From UHGV virus genome UHGV-1367834: a DNA stretch of 38,620 nt, one strand, 5' to 3'. Under the pieces are notes generated by a model, which was not told where the DNA came from, did no database searches, and saw only the letters and a list, made by a program, of their open reading frames with translations. Both the position numbers and the translations under genes were made by a program. The DNA is from a virus. Below are positions 2,385 to 38,620 of the stretch, in pieces (within the stretch, counting starts at the first letter, position 1; every line of letters begins with the position of its first letter).

Positions 2385-3153
2385 CTATGATATTCATTAC
2401 ACAGGTAGTAAAGGAAATTCAGTATCAATATATACTAATCAATTTAATATATTAGTTGATGCAGGTAAGCCTTACAAATTTATAGAGCCATTACTATATG
2501 AAAAACATTTTTTAATATTTACGCACAGACACGGTGACCATTTCAAACCAGCAGTATTTAGAAAAATACGTGAGAACTTCCCAAATATTAAAATTCTAGC
2601 AAATGAAGAAGTAAATAATTTAATGTTTGAAAAAACTAAAATGGGTGCAGATGTTGTTTTTAGTGATAACTTTCAATTTCAAATTGGTACAATGAAATTC
2701 ACAACTATTCAGAACTATCATGGTGCTGGTGAAGAATTAGTTGACTGTCATGGATTAATTATTGAAGATATTGAATCTGGTGAAGTATTATTATATGCAA
2801 CTGATTTAAGCACTACAATAGATTATCAGGAATATTTAGATAAAAACTCTTTACAAGTAGACTACTGTCTGTTAGAATCTAATTACAATCCTTTAGTAAT
2901 TGAATTTTATGAATTAACAAAAGCGCACACTGGTTTTGATATTTTTAGTAACGGTTCATATCGTCACTTAGCTTCAACTGAACATAAAGAATTTACAGAA
3001 AAGTATTGCAAAGCAGATTCAATTGTGGTACCATTACACCAAAGCGAAACATATTCAACTTTTGAAGGACTAATAAAACGTACTAAAAAATCAGATAACA
3101 AGATTACAGAGAAAGAGGTGAAAGCATGGTTGGAGAAAAAGAAACATATTTAG
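2338..3153 (+). CDS. metallo-beta-lactamase-fold hydrolase
   Basis: HxHxDH motif (FTHRHGDHF), with later His and Asp residues typical of the MBL fold. The start is uncertain: the ATG at 2338 overlaps the upstream gene, and a TTG at about 2368 with a GGAGG RBS is an alternative. Confidence 0.65.
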   Translation: MEKEKRTEVGNLSAFNYDIHYTGSKGNSVSIYTNQFNILVDAGKPYKFIEPLLYEKHFLIFTHRHGDHFKPAVFRKIRENFPNIKILANEEVNNLMFEKTKMGADVVFSDNFQFQIGTMKFTTIQNYHGAGEELVDCHGLIIEDIESGEVLLYATDLSTTIDYQEYLDKNSLQVDYCLLESNYNPLVIEFYELTKAHTGFDIFSNGSYRHLASTEHKEFTEKYCKADSIVVPLHQSETYSTFEGLIKRTKKSDNKITEKEVKAWLEKKKHI

Positions 3154-3650
3154 ATATAAAAGCTTATGAGGGATTATATCTAGTTAGTAATTTAGGTAGA
3201 GTTAAAAGAAAATATATTGATTCAGAAAGGATATTAAAAGGGTATGAAAACGAATGTGGATATATAGTTGTTTGTTTGTCTAAAAACGGCAAATCTAAGA
3301 ACTTTAAAGTTCACCGCTTAGTAGCAGAAGCTTTTATACTAAACCCAGAAAACAAACCAACCGTAAACCATATTGATGAAGATAAAACAAATAATAAAGC
3401 TGACAATTTAGAATGGGCTACAATGAAGGAACAGAATAACCATGGTACGAGGAATAAACGCTCATCAAAAACGCAAGGAATGAAAATAAAAGCAATAGAT
3501 ATTGCAAATGGTGAATATAATATCTACAACTCACAACAAGAATGCGCTAAGAGACTGAACATTATGCAATCAAGTATTAGTCAATGTATTAAAGGAAATA
3601 TGAAACAAACTGGAGGTTATATTTTTGAAAAAATCACAAATGAGTTATAA
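3126..3650 (+). CDS. HNH homing endonuclease (NUMOD4/HNH_3 type)
   Basis: Motifs KAYEGLYLVSNLGRVKR...[15 protein letters not shown]...NNHG, C-terminal tail GGYIFEKI. RBS AGAGGTG upstream. Confidence 0.8.
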   Translation: MVGEKETYLDIKAYEGLYLVSNLGRVKRKYIDSERILKGYENECGYIVVCLSKNGKSKNFKVHRLVAEAFILNPENKPTVNHIDEDKTNNKADNLEWATMKEQNNHGTRNKRSSKTQGMKIKAIDIANGEYNIYNSQQECAKRLNIMQSSISQCIKGNMKQTGGYIFEKITNEL

Positions 3651-29986: not shown

Positions 29987-30479
29987 TATTTTTCACCTCC
30001 TTATATTTAAAGGTGTAACCTCCACATGTTTTGCGCTTACCTTTTAAAACTTTTACAATTGAACCATCATCAATTTTCAAATCTCTAGCGCAACCTCTAA
30101 TTGAATCATACTCAATTCCATTTGAACAAATTATTTGTTTTGATTTTTGTGTTTTCTGCTGTGTTTCAATTTGTCGTTTGGTTCTTGTTCCATGATTGAT
30201 ATTCTCTTTAGATGTTGACCATTCTAGGTTAGATACAAAATTATTTGTTTTGCATTCATCAATATGGTTTACCTGTGGTTTGTTATCTGGGTTTGGTATA
30301 AATGCTTCTGCAACTAAACGGTGTACCCTCCTAAAGTGTGCTTTATTATCTTTCCACAATGTAACTGTCTTATATCCATCTTTGTCAATATTTTGTTTTA
30401 ACCGTTTGACGTTGTTATATACATTACCATAGTTGTCAACGTAGTATCTACCTTTAAATTCTAATACATCTTTCTTCAT
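29979..30479 (-). CDS. HNH homing endonuclease (NUMOD4/HNH_3 type)
   Basis: Motifs [32 protein letters not shown]...NINHG, C-terminal tail GGYTFKYK. The likely start is the second ATG (MKKDVLEF...) with RBS AGGAGG. A TGTTATACT -10 lies about 25 nt upstream. Confidence 0.8.
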   Translation of the reverse strand: MKKDVLEFKGRYYVDNYGNVYNNVKRLKQNIDKDGYKTVTLWKDNKAHFRRVHRLVAEAFIPNPDNKPQVNHIDECKTNNFVSNLEWSTSKENINHGTRTKRQIETQQKTQKSKQIICSNGIEYDSIRGCARDLKIDDGSIVKVLKGKRKTCGGYTFKYKEVKNNG

Positions 30480-30504
30480 TGTATAACCTCCTATATAATA
30501 TTTA

Positions 30505-30775: not shown

Positions 30776-30984
30776 AAAACTGTTGTTTGAGAAACCAGCT
30801 TTTGTGCTGTTTGTGAGGGAAGAAATTCGTATTAGTGAGATTATGAAACAATGTGTGAAACGTTTGATATTATTAAAAAGAAACCTGTTTTGAATCGTTT
30901 TTTACGAGGGAAAAAGGCTGTTTTGAAACTTCGTTTTTAGAATTTTGTGTGAAGAGAAGGAATCTCCGATTGTAGCCACCAAAA

Positions 30985-31050
30985 TATTGAGGGGGGGCAT
31001 TAAAATTTTCAGCTACCCTCCCCTCGCTTTTGGCGCTATCCCCCTTAAAA
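30985..31050. other. G/C homopolymer-tract hairpin region; candidate cos site and/or bidirectional terminator
   Basis: GAGGGGGGGCATTAAAATTTTCAGCTACCCTCCCCTCGCTTTTGGCGCTATCCCCCTT contains G7, CCCTCCCCTC and C5 tracts, which stand out in an AT-rich genome. It sits between the classic HNH gene and terS. Confidence 0.4.
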
Positions 31051-31446
31051 TTATTTATGGTTAGCCCTACCTGCATTTTTAAAGGAATGAGCGTGGTCCT
31101 CTTTATTGTGACAGGATTGACAAATTGATTCTAAATTATTAATATCTAAACGTTTTTCCCAACCAATTGGTGTACGTATTTCCTCCACATGGTGGACGAT
31201 AGTGGCAAGCGTCTTGGTGTGGTCATTGCGTTCACATACTTCACATAATGGATTGATACTTAACTTGTATTGTCTTAATCTTTTCCATTCACTTGACTGG
31301 TAGAACTCTGCATACCTTTTGTTCTGTGGATTAGTGCGCACATACTTATTGTATTGCGTGGCACTATTACCTTTGTGCTTAGCACAGTACACCTCTGGTT
31401 GCTTTACATATTCTCTACATAAAGCAAGCTTACATTTCTTATACAT
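31051..31446 (-). CDS. HNH endonuclease (classic zinc-finger HNH, terminase-associated type)
   Basis: CEVCERNDHTKTLATIVHHVEEI...NNLESICQSCHNKEDH carries the paired Cys and the H-N-H residues. The start is coupled to the upstream stop (TAATG). Confidence 0.8.
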   Translation of the reverse strand: MYKKCKLALCREYVKQPEVYCAKHKGNSATQYNKYVRTNPQNKRYAEFYQSSEWKRLRQYKLSINPLCEVCERNDHTKTLATIVHHVEEIRTPIGWEKRLDINNLESICQSCHNKEDHAHSFKNAGRANHK

Positions 31447-31661
31447 TAGAATGAGTACATGTCTTTCTTAGTTACAGTATCACTAAAGGTATATGATGTC
31501 AAGTGGTGTGGTGCTGTTTGGTCTGTGCATTTCGTTGTGTCAGTATCCTTGTTACCTTGTTCTGTTAACACTCCCTCTAGTGTTCTGATGTATGCCACTA
31601 GGTCCACCTTGTTACTCTTTAGTAACTGCTTATCTGTCTTATTATATAGTTCATGTTCCAT
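31446..31661 (-). CDS. hypothetical protein
   Basis: 71 aa, coupled between the membrane ORF and the HNH gene. Confidence 0.45.
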   Translation of the reverse strand: MEHELYNKTDKQLLKSNKVDLVAYIRTLEGVLTEQGNKDTDTTKCTDQTAPHHLTSYTFSDTVTKKDMYSF

Positions 31662-31861
31662 TAGTCGTTACCTCGTTTAGTTGCTTTGAATAGTACAGTG
31701 AATACAATGTTAACAATAACTAACCATGCGATTAGTGTGTGACCTGTTGCAAACAATACACCTACAATTACCCATATGATATAGATGTTAAGTGCTAACA
31801 AACCGAGTACCAAGATACTTGCTAATACAATCCCAATGATGTTTCCTGCTTCTTTATTCAT
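31661..31861 (-). CDS. small membrane protein with two transmembrane segments
   Basis: 66 aa, strongly hydrophobic. RBS AGGAGG; a TGCTATAAT promoter lies upstream. Confidence 0.5.
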   Translation of the reverse strand: MNKEAGNIIGIVLASILVLGLLALNIYIIWVIVGVLFATGHTLIAWLVIVNIVFTVLFKATKRGND

Positions 31862-31888
31862 AATTAATTCCTCCTAATATGTTTTACT

Positions 31889-31898
31889 TTACTTCTAT
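31889..31898 (-). promoter_or_regulatory. extended -10 promoter (TGCTATAAT) at the start of the minus-strand block
   Basis: The reverse complement of ATTATAGCA lies about 25 nt upstream of the RBS of the 31861 ORF. Confidence 0.5.
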
Positions 31899-31956
31899 AT
31901 TATAGCATACCTATTTGTGCTTTAGGGAGTAGATTAATCATTGATAACCAATGAAA

Positions 31957-32105
31957 TGTTCTTCATGTGTTCTTCATGTGTTCTTGATGTTCTCGATGTG
32001 TTCTCTGTTTAAGTAACCAATTGTCGCAATGAGGAACACCTATAAACGTTGATAAACCAACATTCTTAGCCTATTTTATTATAAGTGTTCTCTGTGTTCT
32101 CTGTA
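31957..32105. repeat. iteron array of direct repeats (TGTTCTTCATG x2, TGTTCTTGATG, TCTCGATG, TGTTCTCTG x3)
   Basis: Read directly from the sequence. The core hexamer TGTTCT is reiterated in tandem at 31957-32007 and 32086-32103. Confidence 0.7.
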
Positions 32106-32245
32106 TATTCTACTCCATCTGTAGAAAAATATATAATAGAAGATAAGTATATATATAGAATGAGTTAAAACAATGAGGAACACAAAGACCATGTAGAACA
32201 AGCCTACTCTCCCAAGGTATTCAGACGTTCTTTGTACGATTTCAA

Positions 32246-32280
32246 CAGAGAACAAACAGAGAACAGATGAAGAACATTTC
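32246..32280. repeat. inverted copies of the iterons (CAGAGAACAAACAGAGAACAGATGAAGAACATTTC)
   Basis: Its reverse complement, GAAATGTTCTTCATCTGTTCTCTGTTTGTTCTCTG, matches the units of the left array. An AT-rich stretch at 32118-32165 lies between the two sets. Confidence 0.7.
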
Positions 32281-32320
32281 AACTGGTTTCATTATTTTTA
32301 AATTAATTTGAACAAAAGTG

Positions 32321-32351
32321 TTGACAACTACTATAGCACATGTTATAGTAG
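32321..32351 (+). promoter_or_regulatory. early promoter P4 (TTGACA, 17-nt spacer, TATAGT) with the inverted repeat CTACTATA-N8-TATAGTAG
   Basis: First + promoter of the right-hand early block. The palindrome spans the spacer and the -10. Confidence 0.6.
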
Positions 32352-32390
32352 GTACATAAGATAACAACAAACAAATTGGAGGAATTAAAA

Positions 32391-32525
32391 ATGACAAAAG
32401 AACAAATCAATGCAGAAGTGAAATTACAAGAAATGTTAGGTAACAAATTAGAAGTGATTCAATTAGGTAATGACATTTACATGTATCTTAATGGTGAATC
32501 ATACAAAACAGCTGAATTAATTTAA
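32391..32525 (+). CDS. small hypothetical protein of about 44 aa, not in the ORF track
   Basis: Strong RBS AATTGGAGGAATTAAAAATG downstream of promoter P4. The reading frame is MTKEQINAEVKLQEMLGNKLEVIQLGNDIYMYLNGESYKTAELI. Confidence 0.5.
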   Translation: MTKEQINAEVKLQEMLGNKLEVIQLGNDIYMYLNGESYKTAELI

Positions 32526-32539
32526 TAAAAATCAGAAAA

Positions 32540-32572
32540 GGGGTTGACAAGTTCAGCCCCAACTGATATACT
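32540..32572 (+). promoter_or_regulatory. early promoter P5 (TTGACA, 17-nt spacer, TATACT) with its -35 embedded in the GGGGTTGA/TCAGCCCC hairpin
   Basis: Duplicated module: 32530-32585 matches 36655-36710. Confidence 0.6.
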
Positions 32573-32601
32573 AAATATATAAATTAAAGGGAGGATATAA
32601 A

Positions 32602-33321
32602 ATGTTAGTATCAAAGAAAAAGCATGATTTATTGATTAAGAACTACAATGAGTTAGTAGATGATAGGGATAGATGGCAAGGAAGATGTATTCACCACGCA
32701 AACAACCTTGACAGAGCATACGAGGAGATAAACGAGTTAAGAGAAATGATTAGAGAGATTAAGAGAGAAAAGAATAGAGATATAAACAACCTAACATTTG
32801 AACGTGACACATATAAGGAAAAATACAAAGAATGGTTTCAAAACTTTATTAAAACAAAAGCAGAACTAGAAAAAGTTGACAAAATTGTTTTACAATATGA
32901 ACAACGAATTAATGAATTGGAGGAAAAAGAAATGACAAAATATGCTAAAATTACAAAATATTTAGGACCACATAACATTGACAAAAGACTTGGTTTAGAA
33001 ATTGGTAAAACATATAAAATTGTAGAATATAAGAGTCCTTTAACTGATAATTGCTATATTTATTTAAATGATGAATATCCATACTATTTCATTTCAGAAA
33101 GACAATATGAATTAGTAGAAAAAGAAGAAAAAGAAGAAACACCAACTTTTAAAACAACTATAGACTTGAAGTCTAGTGTACAAGCTAAAATTGACTCACT
33201 AACAACGGAAGCAGAACACTTATTCAAAAAGCGTGACCGCTTGGAGCAACAGGCAATTAACTTAAGCAAAAAGGCACGCAAACTTAACAAACTGATTGAA
33301 ACTATCAAAGAATTTGAATAA
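32602..33321 (+). CDS. hypothetical coiled-coil protein
   Basis: 239 aa, Glu/Lys-rich. RBS AAGGGAGGA downstream of P5. Confidence 0.6.
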   Translation: MLVSKKKHDLLIKNYNELVDDRDRWQGRCIHHANNLDRAYEEINELREMIREIKREKNRDINNLTFERDTYKEKYKEWFQNFIKTKAELEKVDKIVLQYEQRINELEEKEMTKYAKITKYLGPHNIDKRLGLEIGKTYKIVEYKSPLTDNCYIYLNDEYPYYFISERQYELVEKEEKEETPTFKTTIDLKSSVQAKIDSLTTEAEHLFKKRDRLEQQAINLSKKARKLNKLIETIKEFE

Positions 33322-34796: not shown

Positions 34797-36377
34797 ATGT
34801 TAAATGAATTACAAAAAGTTGAATATGACCAACCAGTTGAATTAAGGTTTATCAGCACGCTTGAAAAGACTTTGACGCCAAGTAAGCAATATATCAAGGC
34901 ATTATCAGAATATGAGAAGGACCACAAAGAGTGGGAAGTTGACTTTAAAAATGGTGATGCGGCTAAAAATGCAGAGCCACAACGACCAGAACCAAGTTAT
35001 GACGGTTTAAACGCAGAAGCCTTGGCAGTTCACATGGCTAAGGTATTACCAGTGCATGCCAGCTCCACAATCGGTTTACCAGTGGTTTACAATCATGACA
35101 CAAAAATCTATGAGGTTTCAGAAGACAACCTAGAAGCTCGTTTATGGCAAAAGCTTTACAATGAGTTTATGATGGTATACACACCACACTATGCAGAAAA
35201 TGCAAAGGTTGCTAACCAATTTAGAAATGCAGTCCAAAGAATGGCAAAAAATGCGCTTGCTTCTGGTGCTAACTTACCATTTAATGACAGAATGGACCCA
35301 AATAAAATTGCCTTTAAAAACGGAACATATCGCTTTAAAGAGGACACACTAAAACCAACTGTAAAAGAGGACTACCAAACAACAAGGATTGAATATGATT
35401 ATATTGATAACCCTAAACACAATATAGTTGCTGAATGGATTGAGTACATTTTAGAAGAGGACGCAAAAACACTGTTTCAATTGATTGGACGTATTTTTTA
35501 CCGCAACCAAGACCCGCAAGCAATGGTATTTGCAACTGGTGAAGGTAGTAACGGTAAATCTCACGTTATGGCATTTATTGAGGACCTAGTAGGTAAATCA
35601 AACACAAGTCATGCAACACTCGCTAGCTTGTCAGGTAATAACGATAAATTCGCAAGCTCTCAATTATTTGGTAAAATGGTAAACATTGAAACAGATATGC
35701 CAGCACAGCATATTAAACAAACAGGTACACTGAAAACATTATCAGGTAATGACGTTATGAGTGCAGAGTACAAAGGTATTAACAAGTTCACATTTACGAA
35801 CTACGCACTAATGATTTTCACAACTAATAACATGCCTACATTTTCAGACACTTCACATGGTTTTTTGCGCCGTATTATCACATTACCATTTAACAAGACT
35901 ATGGGAAGAGATAACCCAACAGATTCAATGTGGCTGGAACGTTCAAAGAATTTCACATATGAAGAAAAATCAGAGTTTATCAGCTACTGTTTACAACAAT
36001 ATAGAAATGTACTATTTGGACTAAATGGAGAAACCAAAGGACACTTCTGGACCAGTGATAATGCAAATAAATTGCGTGATGCCTTTATCCAAGGAAATGA
36101 CACAATGGCAAACTTTATTGACATGAACGAAATTGAGTTCGTGGAAGATGAAAACTCATTTATCCCAACAAACGAATTATTAGAAGCATATAACGATATG
36201 TTAGTTAATGAAGGACTAATGACCGTTTCAGCTCGCAAGTTTGTGCCAGAACTACAACGTAAATCGCAGAACATTGTATTAAACAGAGTTAAAAAACGAG
36301 TTAATGGTAGACCACAGTATGTGTTAACCAATATTAAATGGGCTAACAACTTTACTGAAACAGATAATATTTTTTAA
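34797..36377 (+). CDS. DNA primase/helicase (D5 N-terminal-like region plus P4-type SF3 helicase C-terminal domain)
   Basis: Walker A motif GEGSNGKSH and Walker B-like motif ALMIFTTN, with the P4/D5 primase-helicase C-terminal layout (...KFASSQLFGKMVNIETDMP...TLSGNDVMSAEYKG...). Confidence 0.8.
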   Translation: MLNELQKVEYDQPVELRFISTLEKTLTPSKQYIKALSEYEKDHKEWEVDFKNGDAAKNAEPQRPEPSYDGLNAEALAVHMAKVLPVHASSTIGLPVVYNHDTKIYEVSEDNLEARLWQKLYNEFMMVYTPHYAENAKVANQFRNAVQRMAKNALASGANLPFNDRMDPNKIAFKNGTYRFKEDTLKPTVKEDYQTTRIEYDYIDNPKHNIVAEWIEYILEEDAKTLFQLIGRIFYRNQDPQAMVFATGEGSNGKSHVMAFIEDLVGKSNTSHATLASLSGNNDKFASSQLFGKMVNIETDMPAQHIKQTGTLKTLSGNDVMSAEYKGINKFTFTNYALMIFTTNNMPTFSDTSHGFLRRIITLPFNKTMGRDNPTDSMWLERSKNFTYEEKSEFISYCLQQYRNVLFGLNGETKGHFWTSDNANKLRDAFIQGNDTMANFIDMNEIEFVEDENSFIPTNELLEAYNDMLVNEGLMTVSARKFVPELQRKSQNIVLNRVKKRVNGRPQYVLTNIKWANNFTETDNIF

Positions 36378-36407
36378 AAATAATTTAAAGAAAGTTGACT
36401 AAAACAG

Positions 36408-36436
36408 TTGACTTTCTTTTTTTCACATGCTATACT
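36408..36436 (+). promoter_or_regulatory. early promoter P8 (TTGACT, 17-nt spacer, TATACT); duplicate of the P2 module
   Basis: See P2. Confidence 0.65.
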
Positions 36437-36467
36437 TAATTCATAAGTTAAGAGGAGGAATTAGACA

Positions 36468-36656
36468 ATGACAACTAAAGAAAAATACGAAAACAAATTA
36501 AAAAGATTAAATGAAAGATTTGACAAATTAAAATCAGAAATGATTGAAGCATACGACAAAGGAGATAACGAAAAAGGACATAGCTTGAACGACAAACTAG
36601 AAAACATATTAGATGTAATTCTACTAACTGAAACAGTATTAGAAAATTTAAAATAA
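36468..36656 (+). CDS. hypothetical small coiled-coil protein
   Basis: RBS AGAGGAGGAATT downstream of P8. Confidence 0.5.
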   Translation: MTTKEKYENKLKRLNERFDKLKSEMIEAYDKGDNEKGHSLNDKLENILDVILLTETVLENLK

Positions 36657-36671
36657 AAATCAGAAAAGGGG

Positions 36672-36700
36672 TTGACAAGTTCAACCCCAACTAATATACT
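36672..36700 (+). promoter_or_regulatory. early promoter P9 (TTGACA, 17-nt spacer, TATACT) inside the perfect hairpin GGGGTTGACAAGTTCAACCCC; duplicate of the P5 module
   Basis: See P5. Confidence 0.6.
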
Positions 36701-36730
36701 AAGTACATAAGTTAAAAGGAGGAAAACAAA

Positions 36731-38105: not shown

Positions 38106-38448
38106 ATTCAGTAGAAAAGTTGTAGATTATTTGGAATCTAAAGGTGCAGTAGTAAACGTCAATACGGCAACCATATATGACCGTGTTGGTCGCTCTGATG
38201 TTGAAGCGTGTTACGAAGGTCACTATATCGCGTTAGAACTCAAAACAGGTAACTACCAACCTGATAAATTACAGATTAGATATTTACAAGATGTTAGGAA
38301 TGCTGGTGGGTATGGACTATTATTAAGAGACAAGTTAGATGATTTGATTGAATTATTAAATTATTTAGATAATTGGGATGAGGTAGACTATATTGAGCCT
38401 GATTTACCAGAAATAAATTATGACGAATTGGAGATTGACTATGATTGA
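38077..38448 (+). CDS. VRR-NUC domain nuclease (PD-(D/E)xK superfamily)
   Basis: GRSDVEACYEGHYIALELKTGNYQPDKLQIRYLQDVRNAGGY fits the VRR-NUC pattern D-x(n)-E-x-K followed by a conserved Q. Confidence 0.65.
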   Translation: MVQYVKQEAKFSRKVVDYLESKGAVVNVNTATIYDRVGRSDVEACYEGHYIALELKTGNYQPDKLQIRYLQDVRNAGGYGLLLRDKLDDLIELLNYLDNWDEVDYIEPDLPEINYDELEIDYD

Positions 38449-38620
38449 AGAATGGAAGGATATTAAAGATTATGAAGGTTTATATAAGGTAAGTAACTTA
38501 GGTAGAGTTAAAAGTAACTATAAAGGACTAGAACGACTATTGAAACCACTTTCTAAGAATAACGGTTATTTATTTGTAATTTTATATAAAGATACCAAAC
38601 CTACAAAATATTATGTCCAC
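38441..38620 (+). CDS. HNH homing endonuclease, 3' truncated by the window edge
   Basis: MIEEWKDIKDYEGLYKVSNLGRVKS has the same N-terminal motif as the other NUMOD4/HNH_3 paralogs. Its start overlaps the VRR-NUC stop codon. Confidence 0.75.
   Translation, partial: MIEEWKDIKDYEGLYKVSNLGRVKSNYKGLERLLKPLSKNNGYLFVILYKDTKPTKYYVH

Follow-up and report, generated by a model that had tools for sequence, protein, structure and literature searches.

The closest known counterparts of the replication origin proposed here are those of the Staphylococcus aureus pathogenicity islands (SaPIs). Their Rep proteins recognize penta- or hexanucleotide iterons through a C-terminal winged helix, and deletion of the C-terminal domain abolishes binding to the origin (PMC9371898). 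Each origin has 6–12 iterons divided by an AT-rich centre, such that no fewer than two lie on either flank and the two flanks point in opposite directions, and self-loading of the helicases, with a hexamer per flank, has been suggested; moreover, each element has its own cognate Rep–ori specificity (PMC9371898). In this work, we analyze a region of similar appearance in the virus genome UHGV-1367834, a stretch of 38,620 nucleotides that is called the window in what follows. The region is the 529-bp gap at positions 31862–32390, where the two coding arms of the window diverge, and its repeats are built on the hexamer TGTTCT. The protein that we propose as its initiator is a superfamily 3 (SF3) helicase encoded in the rightward arm.

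Two other phage systems are useful for comparison. In phage P4, the alpha protein carries an N-terminal primase and recognizes octamer iterons (TGTTCACC) with an origin-binding winged helix at its C-terminus; P4 also depends on crr, a second cis site. In lambdoid phages, the iterons and the DNA-binding domain of the O protein are exchanged together, with several replicon specificities per group. Lambda O is not a helicase; it recruits the host DnaB through P, and the origin is placed inside the O gene.

The carrier of the window is a lytic Enterococcus phage. The 1.5 kb around the region match 115 phage records, 113 of which are named Enterococcus phage, and the intergenic region by itself matches 147 records. 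These relatives belong to the genus Efquatrovirus (e.g., IME-EF4, phiSHEF2/4/5, EFA1 and Stockyards), whose members are among the commonest phage isolates proposed for therapy against Enterococcus faecalis. To our knowledge, there has been no experimental study of Efquatrovirus replication so far. An origin has been predicted in silico for Enterococcus phage Abitsa, where an AT-rich region near a genome end, at the locus that GC skew points to, is surrounded by seven 10-bp iterons, and a PriRep5-like helicase was named as the likely initiator (PMC13517437, Viruses, August 2026). Abitsa is of the same genus and has a helicase of the same family, and the description of its predicted origin fits the window's region, and the two may be the same locus. 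Unlike the comparison given below, the Abitsa origin is a single-genome prediction, and the paper does not describe iterons and helicase C-terminal domains varying together (PMC13517437).

We consider it likely that the region is a bidirectional origin of the self-loading SF3-helicase type, as in the SaPI islands and phage P4. In our best reading of the sequences, the origin lies between divergent promoters and would be recognized by the helicase through its C-terminal domain. The region appears to fit the SaPI Rep–origin description in all respects but location. It would work like a SaPI origin and the P4 ori, being a strict member of neither class because of its location, the lack of a fused primase and the lack of a second cis site. 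The mechanism itself is known; what is new here is the exclusive, domain-level co-variation of the repeat type with the helicase tail, which comprises at least seven types.

Architecture of the Intergenic Region

The plus-strand early/replication arm runs from 32391 past the window end and on to 9669, and the minus-strand arm, from 31861 to 9760, contains the packaging, head, tail and lysis genes. A preliminary description of this DNA had listed repeats in both orientations around an AT-rich element, and a sequence check found all of them in their places, including the AT-rich stretch that follows the left iterons and the inverted units to its right (coordinates are collected in Table 1). The region holds 11 exact TGTTCT hexamers plus 3–4 degenerate copies. 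These represent 11 of the 42 hexamers in the whole 38.6-kb window, and a twelfth is found at 32399, 9 nt into the first early gene. Such clustering (≥12 copies) has a binomial probability of 3e-13, and the densest 529-bp stretch elsewhere contains 4 copies.

The polarity of the iterons changes about the AT minimum, with seven forward and no reverse copies on the left and one forward and four reverse copies on the right. The lowest 40-bp GC content of the region (0.12) is centred near 32141, at this switch of repeat orientation. Spacing between iterons is 9–11 nt, and in the left array it is 11/11/9/11, about one helical turn, so that the iteron units would be placed on one face of the DNA. The right array forms with the left array a 33-nt inverted repeat with 85% complementarity. 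The region therefore has what SaPI-type origins require, i.e., 6–12 iterons split by an AT-rich stretch, with at least two per side and in opposed directions. Within the left array, the GTTCT cores are kept in all the relatives with the same repeat type (type A, see below), and the spacers are variable.

The 13-bp repeat CAATGAGGAACAC had been listed as a direct repeat. It does occur twice, at 32027 and 32171, but it is not a separate element: it is an inverted iteron with one A-to-G change, and the relatives have at this position CAATGAAGAACAC or ATCGAGAACAC (also given as AAGAACAC or GAGAACAC). The minus-strand open reading frame (ORF) at 32079–32282, which begins with TTG, was suspected to be spurious, and we agree with this judgement, as close relatives have indels or replaced segments within its span. 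No Rfam family was detected in 31400–32800 with E values up to 1.

Co-Variation of the Repeats with the Helicase Tail

The proposed initiator is related to the SaPI initiators by several measures. It scores 142.9 bits against the P4-family model TIGR01613 (residues 170–482), over the curated cut-off of 108.7, which is also its likeness to P4 alpha. A phmmer comparison with the SaPI5 primase-helicase PriRep5 (PDB 7OLA) gave E = 3.7e-14 over residues 167–440. The AlphaFold model, built with 66 homologues, has a mean predicted local distance difference test (pLDDT) value of 85, and its best Foldseek match is again 7OLA, with E = 3.6e-22 and a target-normalised TM score of 0.73; the 7OLA chains ranked highest are the ones in which the C-terminal domain is present. 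The modelled tail consists of a helix at residues 436–443, two short strands, helices at 458–471 and 479–489 and three strands at 496–515, with pLDDT of ~75–90, which is like a winged-helix topology. When the C-terminal domain by itself was compared as a sequence profile with solved structures, nothing credible came out, the best hit being an unrelated immunity protein (E = 0.11). Unlike PriRep5 and P4 alpha, the phage helicase has no Prim-Pol or Toprim match in Pfam/NCBIfam that would indicate a fused primase domain, and the relatives encode a separate Prim-Pol/PriCT_1 gene.

Conservation of the iterons in relatives had been proposed as a check of the origin, and it was examined over 26 homologous loci, comprising IMG/VR contigs found via the helicase, GenBank phages and metagenome contigs with more distant helicases. 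The outcome is twofold. The layout and both promoters are common to all 26 loci, in the order direct array, near-palindrome, two direct copies, AT-rich core, inverted copies and early promoter; the repeat sequence, in contrast, is exchanged wholesale, and it matches the type of the helicase tail. All of the 17 loci with a C-terminal domain ≥92% identical to the window's have 8–12 copies of GTTCTY and none of the motifs of the other types. In the nine loci where this domain is ≤78% identical, there is no GTTCTY in any, and 5–15 copies of another motif are found (GTAACRC, GTTATGC, GTTCCAC, GTGACCA, TGGGAC or GGAACAY). Repeat type and C-terminal-domain type hence pair in 26/26 loci.

The co-variation is confined to one domain of one protein. 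Helicases of loci with type A and type B repeats are ~99% identical over residues 1–440, and 35 of their 35 fixed differences fall in residues 442–522. As a control, all the plus-strand ORFs of the loci were clustered, and the columns that separate the types were counted for each family. Among the 23 early protein families common to types A and B/B', 36 fixed differences were counted for the helicase, against 3 for the next family and 0–1 for all the others, and the three real minus-strand genes that adjoin the region have none between types. Further 'co-varying' families, which came out of a screen of minus-strand ORFs, were rejected, being antisense frames of plus-strand genes that include the helicase tail.

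This pattern, together with the homology of the helicase to the SaPI Rep initiators, supports the initiator-bound origin that had been suggested from the repeats, and the cognate helicase–origin specificity known from the SaPIs appears to be present here, as judged indirectly by co-variation. The match could in principle be due to co-inheritance and not to binding, if the origin were fired by the host initiator or by another phage protein. We regard this as quite improbable. The tail and the origin are 2.4–5.7 kb apart, with mosaic genes between them that do not co-vary; simple linkage should drag such neighbouring genes along, and so function explains the pairing better. No DnaA box (TTATCCACA) with ≤1 mismatch occurs within 31862–32390, and in the SaPI homologues the C-terminal domain is needed, since truncated PriRep5 loses binding to ori5 (PMC9371898). 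What speaks for another initiator is that only a few loci represent the repeat types B to G, and that the palindrome at 32043–32066, which is conserved without co-variation, could be the site of another conserved factor. This near-palindrome is present in 1–2 copies in the origins of every iteron type, and therefore it does not track the helicase tail. Its folding into a hairpin in single-stranded DNA is not significant (z = −0.86), and our guess is that it binds a conserved dimeric protein of the phage or the host.

Several points weigh against a SaPI-like origin read by the helicase tail. The first one is location: in the SaPIs, ori directly follows rep, whereas the phage helicase gene is found 2.4 kb downstream of the origin. 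The gap downstream of that gene (36378–36730) contains no TGTTCT and has a conserved small ORF and promoters. Secondly, the winged-helix assignment of the tail comes from a predicted model. Thirdly, the types other than A are represented by 1–3 loci each (three for B, one for B', two for C, and one each for D to G), and the window exceeds several type-A relatives in both the length and the AT content of the central stretch. In locus L030, the C-terminal domain is 78% identical to the window's and the predicted recognition (third) helix is nearly identical, yet the repeat, TGGGAC, is entirely different. Either the specificity code is not a simple one, with few residues deciding, or part of the repeats is bound by something else. 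Finally, the minimum of the cumulative GC skew at ~32000 of the window agrees with an origin there, but the skew switch is confounded with the switch of coding strand.

A SaPI-like origin in the gap 36378–36730 was also considered and rejected, because it has no iterons, and the tandem repeats reported there by Tandem Repeats Finder are part of a promoter pair and of the small conserved ORF.

Table 1. Features of the intergenic region and of the proposed initiator gene (window coordinates).
Feature	Position	Strand	Remarks
Leftward extended −10 promoter TGCTATAAT	31899–31907	−	Head of the minus-strand packaging/structural block
Left iteron array	31957–32007	+	Five direct TGTTCTY(S)ATG copies: 31957, 31968, 31979, 31988, 31999
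Degenerate inverted iteron	32027–32039	−	CAATGAGGAACAC; core GGAACA vs AGAACA in relatives
Conserved near-palindrome TAAACGTTGATAAACCAACATT	32043–32066		Family consensus TAAACGTTGATA|TATCAACGTTTA (also written TAAACGTTGATATATCAACGTTTA)
Two direct iterons TGTTCTCTG (32086, 32095) and degenerate TATTCT	32086–32110	+	Abut the AT-rich core
AT-rich core, presumed DNA unwinding element	32118–32170		GC 14% in 32125–32174
Two inverted iterons right of the AT-rich core	32171–32200	−	CAATGAGGAACAC 32171–32183; AGAACA 32195–32200
Right iteron array	32246–32281	−	Three inverted copies, AGAACA at 32249, 32260, 32271; 11-nt spacing
Rightward early promoter TTGACA-17-TATAGT	32321–32349	+	11/12 consensus matches; TG before −10
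SF3 (D5/P4-alpha family) helicase, 526 residues, proposed initiator	34797–36377	+	Pfam D5_N, DUF5906
Helicase C-terminal domain (residues 441–526), proposed iteron-recognition module	36117–36374	+	Winged-helix-like in the model

Flanking Promoters

Two divergent promoters flank the arrays. The rightward one was described correctly from the beginning, and a TTGACA promoter is found at the same place in the relatives. The leftward motif TGCTATAAT had also been recognized on the minus strand, but with a coordinate displaced by ten bases (31889); it is really the reverse complement of 31899–31907. The window contains the motif five times (20509, 21256, 28981, 30765 and 31899) against 0.79 expected, and exclusively on the minus strand of the late arm, for which reason we take it as a genuine promoter class of this arm; the class seems to have a weak or absent −35 element. 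A 19-mer around 31899–31907 is kept in 17 related loci regardless of the repeat type.

The arrays had alternatively been read as operator sites for a regulator of the divergent promoters. In the strict form of this reading, they would be operators and nothing else, with a phage regulator switching between the early and the late-block promoter and with replication starting elsewhere. The arrays do lie between two real divergent promoters, each array being upstream of a promoter at a distance of a few tens of bp, and repeat arrays are typical of operators. Nevertheless, we think that this is very unlikely as the sole function. Both promoters remain constant while the repeats are swapped wholesale, and no regulator accompanies the swaps: it is only the helicase C-terminal domain that co-varies, and no small DNA-binding protein does. 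Moreover, the phage group has been reported to be without repressor and integrase genes (PMC13517437). No other combination of iterons and an AT-rich stretch was seen in the window: TGTTCT is absent from the gap downstream of the helicase gene (36378–36730), and every other 529-bp stretch has at most 4 copies. A switch of the CI/Cro type was rejected as well, because the arrays flank both promoters without overlapping them, and no early or adjacent late protein except the helicase co-varies. A secondary effect of helicase binding on either flanking promoter is possible.

Proposed Mechanism

Coming back to the SF3-helicase origin, we infer physical binding, melting, bidirectional firing and help from transcription in the following manner. 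The early promoter at 32321 would drive expression of the helicase gene, and the modelled C-terminal winged-helix domain of the protein would recognize the ~10-bp iterons built on TGTTCTY. Since the iterons are aimed at the core from both sides (seven on the left and 4–5 on the right), helicase assemblies would load in opposite directions on each flank. These assemblies would melt the stretch 32118–32170 and separate, giving two forks that are codirectional with the two divergent transcription blocks. The negative supercoiling produced by divergent transcription at the flanking promoters may help in opening the core.

Such a mechanism shares with SaPI1, SaPIbov1 and SaPI5 that the SF3 helicase would itself be the initiator via a C-terminal winged helix, which for this phage is a modelled one, and that short iterons are split by an AT-rich centre. 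Differences are found besides those of location and primase: the phage iterons are ~10-bp units with a 6-bp core, and the carrier is a lytic phage instead of a satellite island. Unlike P4 with its crr site, the window has no second iteron cluster, the other 529-bp stretches having ≤4 TGTTCT. The lambdoid phages offer a parallel in that iterons are swapped together with the DNA-binding module of the initiator; the proteins are unrelated.

It is tempting to go one step further, and to regard the origin and the helicase C-terminal domain as a two-part specificity cassette that is exchanged by recombination among Efquatroviruses, with its parts kilobases apart and at least seven replicon specificity classes on a near-identical motor. 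We put this forward as a speculative proposal that is considerably less likely to be right than wrong. Specificities could diversify because phages infecting the same cell compete, or because satellites or defences take advantage of the initiator. As the helicase loading sites flank the early and late-block promoters, occupancy by the initiator could also time the switch from early to late transcription.

A defined pair of origin and initiator would make a concrete, testable replicon, and it could support phage engineering, origin-based vectors and studies of interference between co-infecting phages. Besides, the matched swaps of iterons and helicase tails would provide at least seven natural variants of DNA recognition on one predicted winged-helix scaffold, which may be used to learn how self-loading SF3 helicases read their origins.

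Diversity among Relatives

The window and 16 other loci have the TGTTCTY repeats of type A. Type B (GTAACGCTT / GTAACACTT) is found in loci L018, L019 and L025, and type B' (GTTATGCTT) in L021; EF326P1 is an example of a phage with a type-B origin. Type C (GTTCCACTT / GTTACACTT) was assigned to L022 and L026, type D (GTAACACTT) to L028, type E (GTGACCA) to L029, type F (GGAACAY-type) to L027 and type G (TGGGACYGAT) to L030. A direct-repeat pair exists in relatives of every type at the place equivalent to 32086–32110. The same plan extends to L032, whose helicase is only 31% identical and whose helicase gene is immediately preceded by GTGTCAC repeats; in both L027 and L032 the iteron cluster directly adjoins the 5' end of this gene. 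In L031, a 7-kb contig with a 65%-identical helicase, the arrangement differs, with a repeat and a (TA)n region downstream of an early promoter, and this locus was left unclassified because it is too incomplete.

The origins of the IME-EF4 type (L001 957–1581; L010, L014 and L016) have seven extra GTCTACAC(TTTT) repeats in both orientations, which are interleaved with the type A iterons. Only one ORF is confined to these loci, namely their first early gene (181 aa; L010 1695–2240, IME-EF4 gp04). By eye, the C-terminus of the gp04-type protein resembles the helicase tail, which makes it a candidate for a second origin-binding or regulatory protein. The extra repeats together with the unique ORF indicate that such origins can accommodate a second family of repeats that has a binder of its own.

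Genome Context and Presumed Packaging Site

Several GenBank records (including PV5441xx) are opened within or at the edge of the origin region, and that of Nonaheksakonda (L026 1–30, MK125140.1) starts midway through the AT-rich core. With such an opening the origin is split over the record ends and is hidden from simple scans.

That many GenBank records are opened in or beside the intergenic region, and that packaging in Efquatroviruses uses cos sites whose 3' overhangs are 9 nt long (PMC4445525), might suggest that the repeats are terminase or packaging recognition sites of a cos region. We find this hardly credible. The experimentally mapped cos end of IME-EF4 (PMC4445525) coincides with the start of its record, whereas the homologous intergenic region is at 957–1581, ~950 bp and three genes off, and the window's cos would by position be near 30780–31050. 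Furthermore, the repeats track the helicase and not a packaging protein. A direct search for the site in the region was also negative and the candidate was rejected, as the IME-EF4 overhang TCATCACCG and both of its 20-nt flanks are absent from the window. The positional counterpart of the IME-EF4 cos region at ~30780–31050 is a non-coding stretch of ~290 bp downstream of an HNH gene (31051–31446), and it includes the G/C-rich tracts GAGGGGGGGCA and CCCTCCCCTCGC; the IME-EF4 cos sequence itself is absent.

Both ends of the window fall within the coding sequence of a NUMOD4/HNH_3 homing endonuclease, with the N-terminal part at 38441–38620 and the C-terminal part at 1–315. The relatives have an SNF2 helicase and a Prim-Pol/PriCT_1 primase (~2.2 kb) between a VRR-NUC endonuclease and a nucleotide kinase, and neither of the two was found in the window by tblastn. 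Either the contig was broken or collapsed at the repeated homing-endonuclease genes, or the primase and the second helicase have been lost naturally. At least 4–5 HNH/NUMOD4 homing-endonuclease genes are present in the 38.6-kb genome (1357–3650, 29979–30518 and 38441–315; PHROG 59/959 matches), with tblastn matches at 29997–30494, 1854–2372, 3141–3629 and the window junction. This load is unusually high, and such genes probably drive mosaicism among the relatives.

Finally, a 25-nt cassette, GGGGTTGACAAGTTCARCCCCAACT, is found twice upstream of early genes, at 32540–32564 and 36668–36692, against an expectation of zero matches by chance. The cassette is an inverted repeat overlapping the promoter −35 element TTGACA, and TATACT comes after it.

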